From: a virus
Lineage: Duplodnaviria > Heunggongvirae > Uroviricota > Caudoviricetes
Strand: one strand, 5' to 3'
IMG/VR virus record: IMGVR_UViG_2531839374_000013
Coordinates: 1 to 7,549 of that record
Length of the DNA: 7,549 nucleotides
The notes below the pieces were generated by a model. The model saw only the letters and a program-made list of their open reading frames with translations, made no database searches and was not told the origin of the DNA. Below, in pieces: positions 5,453-5,948 of the stretch; position 1 is the first letter of the stretch; each line of letters starts with the position of its first letter. The position numbers were made by a program, and so were the translations under genes.

Positions 5453-5482
5453 TTGATTTCATATTGGCGAGGTAAGTAGAAT
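5453..5482 (+). promoter_or_regulatory. Putative hok/mok mRNA promoter (TTGATT-18-TAGAAT)
   Basis: -35 at 5453-5458 and -10 at 5477-5482; predicted start near 5489, where the sequence GGGTGCTTGAGGC resembles the hok mRNA 5' end of plasmid R1 as I recall it. Confidence 0.4.
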
Positions 5483-5499
5483 GACTGCGGGTGCTTGAG

Positions 5500-5527
5500 G
5501 CTATCTGCTTCAGGCTATCTGCTTCAG
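5500..5527 (+). repeat. Perfect tandem duplication of 14 bp (GCTATCTGCTTCAG x2) in the hok mRNA 5' leader
   Basis: Read directly: 5500-5513 equals 5514-5527. Confidence 0.9.
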
Positions 5528-5545
5528 GCATGAACACCAAAAGGC

Positions 5546-5624
5546 AGATAGAGAAAAGCCCCAGTTAACATTACGCGTCCGGCAAGACGCTTAACATTAA
5601 TCTGAGGCCAATTTCATGCTTTGC
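5546..5624 (-). ncRNA. sok: Sok-like antisense RNA (antitoxin of the hok/mok locus)
   Basis: Minus-strand promoter TTGCCT-17-TAACCT (5654-5659 / 5631-5636), equivalent in position and spacing to the R1 sok promoter as I recall it. Transcript is antisense to the mok start region and ends after a short hairpin (5575-5590) and U-rich tract. Ends are approximate. Confidence 0.45.
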
Positions 5625-5828
5625 ACATGTAGGTTAGCCTCTTACATGCCGAAAGGCAAGGAGAAGCAGGCTATGAAGCAGCAAAAGGCGATGTTAATCG
5701 CCCTGATCGTCATCTGTTTAACCGTCATAGTGACGGCACTGGTAACGAGGAAAGACCTCTGTGAGGTACGAATCCGAACCGGCCAGACGGAGGTCGCTGT
5801 CTTCGTAGACTACGAATCCAGGAAGTAA
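5616..5828 (+). CDS. mok: Mok-like reading frame, in-frame N-terminal extension of hok (70 aa)
   Basis: MLCTCRLASYMPKGKEKQA precedes the hok ATG in the same frame, as in chromosomal mokC/hokC. GAGG at 5604-5607 serves as Shine-Dalgarno. No alternative-frame ORF overlaps hok. Confidence 0.55.
   Translation: MLCTCRLASYMPKGKEKQAMKQQKAMLIALIVICLTVIVTALVTRKDLCEVRIRTGQTEVAVFVDYESRK
5673..5828 (+). CDS. hok: Hok/Gef-family type I toxin (HokD/RelF-like), 51 aa
   Basis: MKQQKAMLIALIVICLTVIVTALVTRKDLCEVRIRTGQTEVAVF... matches the Hok/Gef membrane-toxin core; AAGGAG at 5658-5663. Confidence 0.85.
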   Translation: MKQQKAMLIALIVICLTVIVTALVTRKDLCEVRIRTGQTEVAVFVDYESRK

Positions 5829-5905
5829 GAGTGACCGGGCGGGGAGCTGATCCCATCCCCGCCCACCTCTGATGTGTCAGGCATCCTCAACGCACCCGCA
5901 CTTAA

Positions 5906-5948
5906 CCCGCCCATCGCTGTGATCTCTCAGCGTTTCGGCGGGTTTTTT
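5906..5948 (+). terminator. Rho-independent terminator of the hok mRNA
   Basis: Two-tier hairpin (CCCGCC 5906-5911 pairs GGCGGG 5937-5942; inner CGCTG 5915-5919 pairs CAGCG 5928-5932) followed by TTTTTT at 5943-5948. Confidence 0.6.

Follow-up and report, generated by a model that had tools for sequence, protein, structure and literature searches.

Elements of the hok/mok/sok locus

The 7,549-nucleotide (nt) stretch of viral DNA analyzed here, referred to as the window, comprises positions 1 to 7,549 of the IMG/VR record IMGVR_UViG_2531839374_000013 (Caudoviricetes). Judging from its sequence, the segment from 5453 to 5948 is a complete hok/mok/sok type I toxin-antitoxin locus of the hokW/hokD clade, to which we assign a probability of about 0.9 (Table 1). 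An original prediction had listed for this segment a hok promoter, an mRNA 5′ end able to pair with a 3′ element, an in-frame mok gene, a HokD-like toxin, a convergent sok promoter with canonical spacing, and a terminator; each of these was found where it had been placed or a few bases away. As a hok/sok locus it is of a known, previously annotated kind, with nothing new about it in that respect.

The toxin gene, for which no coordinates had been proposed, starts with the ATG at 5673, 9 nt downstream of a Shine-Dalgarno (SD) sequence, AAGGAG (5658-5663). Its product matched the Pfam family PF01848 (HOK_GEF) with E = 4.3e-23 and 81.1 bits (cut-off, 22) along the whole profile (positions 1-42 of 42) and has both conserved cysteines. 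The mok open reading frame (ORF) shares the frame of hok and ends with it. The exact Hok protein is present in RefSeq as WP_014532198.1 under the name HokD, and near-identical loci with the same neighbors are named hokD in RefSeq in thousands of Escherichia coli genomes, in lambdoid prophages. At the RNA level, the Rfam family RF01794 matched positions 5489-5678 over its full model length (positions 1-157; 110.5 bits, with a gathering score of 59; E = 3.6e-25), with two insertions relative to the model, both in hairpin loops. This family is named sok, yet the strand matched here is that of the hok mRNA (plus), so the model describes the mRNA leader.

Table 1. Features of the window, numbered from its first nucleotide
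Feature	Position	Strand	Description	Basis
Integrase gene	1-1272	−		
IS600, first copy	1247-2511			
IS911	3421-4670			
QueH gene	4745-5431			Pfam PF02677
Putative hok promoter	5453-5482	+	−35 TTGATT (5453-5458), 18-nt spacer, −10 TAGAAT (5477-5482)	Consensus scan; activity presumed
hok mRNA, full length (predicted)	5489-5944	+	About 456 nt	5′ end from Rfam model position 1 and distance to −10; 3′ end from terminator
tac (translational activator element)	5489-5500	+	mRNA 5′ end, GGGTGCTTGAGG; predicted to pair with fbi (full-length mRNA) or ucb (processed mRNA)	Rfam model position 1
14-nt tandem repeat	5499-5526	+	Two copies of GGCTATCTGCTTCA (5499-5512, 5513-5526)	Repeat search; alignment of relatives
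Predicted Sok antisense RNA	5548-5624	−	71-77 nt; 3′ end at about 5548-5554	Ends mapped from four annotated sok genes
ucb (anti-SD of mok)	5553-5564	+	Predicted partner of dcb/SDmok (closed form) and, through AAGCCCC (5556-5562), of tac (open form)	Folds
dcb region	5602-5615	+	Includes the mok SD, GAGG (5604-5607), 8 nt before the mok ATG	Sequence reading
Predicted Sok-target hairpin (open form)	5604-5641	+	Loop CUUUGCA (5619-5625) complementary to the Sok 5′ tail	Rfam consensus; fold of 5600-5662
mok	5616-5828	+	70 codons, in frame with hok	ORF list
Putative sok promoter	5631-5659	−	−35 TTGCCT (complement of 5654-5659), 17-nt spacer, −10 TAACCT (complement of 5631-5636)	Sequence reading and homology
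hok	5673-5828	+	Toxin gene, 51 codons	PF01848 match
Stem-loop 3′ of the hok stop	5837-5864	+	GC rich; 9-bp perfect inverted repeat	Sequence and fold
fbi (fold-back inhibitory element)	5885-5897	+	CCTCAACGCACCC, complementary to tac with C5891 bulged	Fold and uniqueness
Predicted hok terminator	5904-5948	+	Stem AACCCGCC/GGCGGGTT (5904-5911/5937-5944), inner hairpin 5915-5932, then T-run	Fold
95-aa ORF	6078-6365		No Pfam match in our scan; counterparts in related loci recorded as Pfam Rem	
DUF1367 gene	6362-7003			
ybcO, truncated	7003-7200		Profile positions 2-38 of 92	Pfam YbcO

The proposed hok promoter was called by the consensus scan, and its −10 hexamer aligned with the −10 of hokB, hokC, and hokE of K-12, of an R1-like plasmid hok, and of hokW of phage 933W. 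At the other end of the transcript, the GC-rich stem with its inner hairpin and T-run bears out the proposed terminator, with a fold energy of −22.8 kcal/mol (z = −4.8). An extra segment of about 22 nt (5912-5931) in the loop of this terminator forms the inner hairpin; strain IHE3034 and K-12 hokD have instead a simple terminator, CCCGC-TTCG-GCGGG(-TTTT). Between the hok stop and the terminator, the stem-loop at 5837-5864 is likely the protective 3′ hairpin of the processed mRNA, by analogy with the R1 data (PMC9841398).

The convergent sok promoter had been proposed to have canonical spacing, and the minus strand does carry TTGCCT and TAACCT 17 nt apart. Both hexamers are identical in hokW-sokW of phage 933W and in the Sp5 probe YO-597. 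Mutation of the sokW promoter abolishes antitoxin activity (PMC8621323), and as YO-597 has TTGCCT...TAACC just as the window does, the weak-looking sok promoter here equals a working one. The ends of the annotated sokC, sokB, and sokE genes of K-12 mapped to 5624 and 5548/5549, and the 71-nt sokW of 933W mapped to 5554-5624. A minus-strand RNA with these ends would agree closely with the extent suggested originally (5546-5624), and its predicted structure (−30.2 kcal/mol; z = −5.0) has an unpaired 5′ tail followed by a long hairpin and a U-tract.

The tip of the Sok hairpin, and likewise its mRNA complement, is longer by about 20 nt (5573-5592 in the window) in the hokD/hokW clade than in sokB, sokC, and sokE of K-12 and in R1-like loci, which puts Sok at 71-77 nt in the clade, against 57-60 nt. 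In a few IMG/VR relatives, the distance from tac to hok is about 20 nt shorter.

Generic scans were less telling. The promoter scan did not call the sok promoter, because its −10 matches only 3 of the 6 consensus positions, and the terminator scan missed the hok terminator (loop of >8 nt) and called none on the minus strand for Sok; the sok promoter, the Sok ends, and the terminators were accordingly assigned by homology mapping and folding in place of the generic scan. The 3/6 match and the uncalled sok promoter speak against a complete locus, and the uncalled promoter and terminators would fit a chance or vestigial resemblance with no functional RNA elements behind it. This we consider to have a negligible probability, ruled out by the family matches (Rfam, E = 3.6e-25; Pfam, E = 4e-23) and opposed as well by the fold of the hok mRNA (−193.4 kcal/mol for 5489-5944; z = −8.65) and by the conservation of the locus elements over thousands of loci, compensatory changes included.

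Predicted folding of the hok mRNA

The hok mRNA of this family is held to follow a folding pathway summarized in PMC9841398, from which we take the element names tac, fbi, ucb, and dcb. The proposed pairing between the mRNA ends was recovered in the minimum free energy (MFE) structure of 5489-5944, in which tac and fbi form 6 + 6 bp around the bulged C5891 (5489-5494/5892-5897 and 5495-5500/5885-5890), each of the 12 pairs having a probability of 0.965-1.0. A search of the window for a one-bulge complement of the mRNA 5′ end gave a single match, 5885-5897, with 0.04 expected by chance. In the family alignment, the tac-fbi cells were 99.4% and 96.2% paired across 53 unique sequences, and the pairing was kept with compensatory changes in hokB and in the R1-like IncR, IncHI1, and Vibrio plasmid loci. 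Within the clade, it is the bulged fbi base that varies (C/T/A).

The mRNA alignment (MAFFT) was built with a one-copy reference for the 14-nt unit, since inclusion of the two-copy window broke the tac columns; the most distant loci were imperfectly in register around the bulge, and their pairings were read by hand. RNAduplex energies between the first 14 nt and the 3′ region were discarded as evidence, as the minima for shuffled tac sequences reached the real value; the RNAduplex matches in K-12 hokC and hokE were spurious, the 3′ ends of these loci having been removed by IS186. The case for tac-fbi pairing is therefore based on position, uniqueness, and compensatory changes rather than on duplex energy. 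A further long-range helix, 5616-5628/5872-5884, is predicted between the mok start region and the sequence just 5′ of fbi, with both-side changes at 8 of its 12 pairs among the 53 unique family sequences.

Three states of the mRNA emerge from the folds, all of them predictions backed by conservation; the closed and open forms agree with the pathway of PMC9841398. In the closed form, the full-length MFE structure contains helices between 5553-5564 and 5602-5615 (ucb/dcb). The open form has a tac-ucb stem, in which tac pairs with 5556-5562; this is both the Rfam consensus structure and the MFE structure of the isolated 5′ domain. Prefixes of 30-45 nt, representing the nascent form, fold into a local tac hairpin (the metastable structure) whether the 14-nt unit is present in one, two, or three copies.

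Transcription, processing, toxicity, and neutralization at this locus may be pictured by homology to R1 hok/sok and hokW-sokW; what is directly established for it is its sequence, family membership, predicted folds, and conservation. The hok promoter would direct synthesis of a stable mRNA of about 456 nt, with tac kept in the local metastable hairpin while transcription is in progress. In the finished mRNA, tac would pair with fbi and ucb would mask the mok SD, so that ribosomes and Sok would both be excluded. Slow 3′ trimming would then take away fbi, upon which tac would switch to ucb, SDmok would be freed, and the target hairpin at 5604-5641 would form. Sok, running on the minus strand from 5624 to about 5550, would pair with this target, and the duplex would be degraded; in characterized systems Sok is short-lived. 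Once Sok is gone, mok would be translated and hok with it by coupling, and the 51-aa Hok peptide would damage the inner membrane.

Copy number of a 14-nt repeat in the mRNA leader

The sole mildly novel point of the locus is a 14-nt repeat of variable copy number, which lies in the folding switch of the toxin mRNA and was missing from the elements listed originally. The unit, GGCTATCTGCTTCA, contributes to two structures, supplying the metastable 5′ hairpin with its 3′ arm and the upper helix of the tac-stem with its 5′ arm. The two copies in the window are the only difference from its closest relatives, the locus being otherwise base-for-base identical to one-copy alleles.

A survey of 5,426 complete E. 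coli genomes gave no instance of the duplication; the 14-nt gap kept even the best match to the locus at 97.3%. Searches for the duplication junction among GTDB species representatives and JGI metagenome contigs gave no match, and of 80 hok loci collected from IMG/VR by protein similarity, none carried the duplication. A separate pattern scan of IMG/VR returned a single contig, L107, whose copy of the locus matches the window with 100% identity. A second IS600 copy, starting at about 7198 (7198-7549 in the window), cuts ybcO and creates a 65-aa fusion ORF that served as lineage marker; 16 public contigs with the exact ORF were read. Within this IS600-in-ybcO lineage, the unit is present once in loci L108 and L110, twice in the window and in L107, L109, L111, and L112, and three times in L008. 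With copy numbers of one, two, and three in the same marked lineage, the duplication is a real, recent length polymorphism confined to that lineage.

With one copy, the metastable hairpin and the tac-stem upper helix are predicted to be mutually exclusive; with two copies, they can coexist in the predicted folds. Duplicating the hairpin 3′ arm together with the upper-helix 5′ arm would thus remove the mutual exclusivity behind the hok folding pathway. In the isolated 5′ domain, the open tac-ucb fold was favored over the tac-sequestered one by 5.7, 1.1, and 1.8 kcal/mol at one, two, and three copies, respectively. In the 3′-trimmed mRNA, for which only allele-to-allele differences were used, the duplication shifted the balance by about 3 kcal/mol toward the tac-sequestered fold. 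A shift of this predicted size could matter, since single substitutions that weaken the R1 tac-stem abolish toxicity (PMC9841398). The duplication is a caveat to the suggestion that the locus may be functional, as in silico it makes the hairpin that sequesters tac nearly as stable as the translatable fold.

Two results weigh against an effect of the repeat on the toxin. The tac-fbi closed form of the full-length mRNA was unaffected by copy number, and for the one-copy trimmed mRNA the nearest-neighbor model already prefers the tac-sequestered fold by about 2 kcal/mol. As the model favors sequestration even at one copy, its absolute predictions cannot be relied on, and the duplication could have no effect at all. 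It is therefore conceivable, with the doubts slightly outweighing the modeling results, that the duplication measurably lowers Hok activation. More tentatively still, the GGCTATCTGCTTCA repeat may be a small variable-number tandem repeat that acts as a natural attenuator of toxin activation, possibly a slippage-driven and reversible one. If true, a type I toxin would here be disarmed through RNA refolding and not through insertion sequence (IS) insertion or toxin mutation.

Taken to its limit, the same shift would leave a locus that is structurally complete but silenced, with the duplication (up to three copies) locking the processed mRNA in the closed, tac-sequestered state, no Hok being produced, and the locus persisting as a decaying remnant like the hok loci of K-12. 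The drop in the open tac-stem advantage from 5.7 to 1.1 kcal/mol and the loss of toxicity caused by single base changes in the R1 tac-stem (PMC9841398) are in line with this. So is the lineage, which was already rich in IS insertions when the duplication arose. Two sister genomes (L006 and L010) carry an IS21-family element at about window position 5862, between the hok stop and fbi; from its location, this insertion would remove fbi and the terminator, and it suggests that hok is under no purifying selection or is selected against. We nevertheless regard silencing as unlikely, given that the tac-ucb stem is still the MFE structure of the isolated 5′ domain (ensemble fractions of 0.71 with two copies and 0.91 with three), that identity to one-copy alleles beyond the repeat gives no further sign of decay, and that the Rfam score falls only modestly, from 120.5 bits for L002 (a one-copy relative with a different allele) to 110.5.

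For the complete locus as such, we incline slightly toward a toxin-antitoxin pair that is still functional. It had been pointed out that no IS interrupts it, unlike several chromosomal hok loci. This holds: 5453-5948 is free of IS elements, IS911 ending at 4670 and the second IS600 copy starting well downstream, whereas in K-12 hokC and hokE are followed at 19-20 nt by IS186, with fbi removed, and mokA is interrupted by IS150. The state of the surrounding prophage tells against function. It is heavily decayed, with IS600 present twice, IS911, and a truncated ybcO, so the locus may be under no selection. In three further related genomes (L005, L009, and L012), an IS911-like element lies at about window position 6042, just downstream of the hok terminator.

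The lineage offers a natural experiment, in which three alleles differ only in GGCTATCTGCTTCA copy number at the very site of competition between the metastable hairpin and the tac-stem. These alleles could be used to test the fine tuning of hok mRNA folding and to ask whether Shigella-type genomes disarm prophage toxins via RNA structure besides IS elements.

Relatives and prophage setting

The label "HokD-like" given to the toxin is right for the protein. A better comparator for the locus as a whole is mokW/hokW/sokW of the Shiga toxin (Stx) phages 933W and Sp5 (VT2-Sakai, E. coli O157:H7), its closest characterized relative: Hok is identical to HokW at 50 of 51 residues (the single difference being R for E at residue 50), and Mok is 96% identical to MokW (67/70). 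The DNA is 92% identical to 933W over 402 nt, from the −10 region through fbi. The tac, fbi, and SDmok elements and the sok promoter hexamers are the same in the window and in 933W/Sp5, and both loci share the extended Sok hairpin (Sok of about 71 nt) and the location in a prophage. Homology runs no further than the −10 region on one side and a point just past fbi on the other; the −35 region with all sequence 5′ of it, the terminator, and the downstream flank differ. The window locus lies between QueH and Rem/DUF1367, that of 933W between L0139 and L0136 near the right end. Two differences fall within the homologous part, namely, the Sok-target loop, and hence the Sok 5′ tail (CUUUGCA in the window and CUGAACA in 933W), and the 14-nt unit, present twice in the window and once in 933W.

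In 2021, Takada et al. (PMC8621323) reported hokW-sokW to be a working type I toxin-antitoxin pair, in which HokW causes growth arrest and is neutralized by sokW expressed from its native promoter, with a contribution from RNase III and Hfq. In that system, Hok is made upon RecA-dependent induction and lysis is advanced; hokW-sokW doubles the release of Sp5 after induction, and its deletion halves phage release (PMC8621323). With this pair as closest relative and the window locus placed among lambdoid nin-region genes, the locus might mainly serve the prophage rather than addiction, Hok made after induction advancing lysis and release as in Sp5, with this role lost in the present defective prophage. 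The different position in the phage genome argues against this, as does the state of the prophage, which is broken up by three IS copies and probably cannot be induced, and we think this role improbable. It concerns the biological role of the locus and is compatible with its identification as a complete hok/mok/sok system.

Among the hok loci of K-12, hokD (relF, in the Qin prophage) encodes a Hok 90% identical to that of the window. Its DNA is homologous only over 5659-5910, i.e., from the hok SD through fbi and the start of the terminator. In K-12 the gene follows relBE, and five features of the window, namely, the hok promoter, tac, ucb, sok, and the mok start, are missing from it; the window locus is therefore the complete form of the K-12 fragment. 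The hokA, hokB, hokC (gef), and hokE loci of K-12 belong to the same family, and mokC is in frame with hokC, as mok is with hok here.

The founding member of the family, hok/sok (parB) of plasmid R1, has the same architecture, with tac, fbi, ucb, dcb, the metastable hairpin, and mok as in the window and with the Sok promoter likewise inside mok. R1-like plasmid loci score 89-107 bits with RF01794. R1 Hok is only about 42-44% identical to the window protein, R1 Sok is shorter, without the extra ~20 nt of hairpin, and the R1 mok is out of frame with hok, unlike the in-frame mok of the window. The R1 locus is plasmid borne and acts in postsegregational killing, whereas the locus described here resides in a prophage remnant.

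That remnant is an IS-ridden lambdoid prophage, in which the locus occupies a nin-like region with the gene order QueH-hok-Rem-DUF1367-YbcO. The IS600/IS911 load suggests a Shigella-type genome of the E. coli group. Contig L107 equals the window on both flanks but has a differing stretch of 1,311 nt (1875-3186) in place of window positions 1875-4289, a span that takes in the RalR/RalA region and parts of IS600 and IS911; the difference suggests an IS-mediated rearrangement within the lineage.

A second type I module lies between IS600 and IS911. RalA was matched at full length on the minus strand at 2820-3041 (Rfam RF02694; 207 bits), overlapped by a RalR-like 73-aa ORF at 2824-3002 on the plus strand (Pfam DUF1187; E = 2.5e-36). 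Adjoining the latter is a 159-aa ORF (3020-3499, minus strand) whose 5′ end overlaps the IS911 terminus and which had no Pfam match. On the other side of the hok locus, a second promoter-like site, TTGATT-16-TAGAAT (5969-5996), repeats the hexamers of the hok promoter ahead of the 95-aa ORF (6078-6365).

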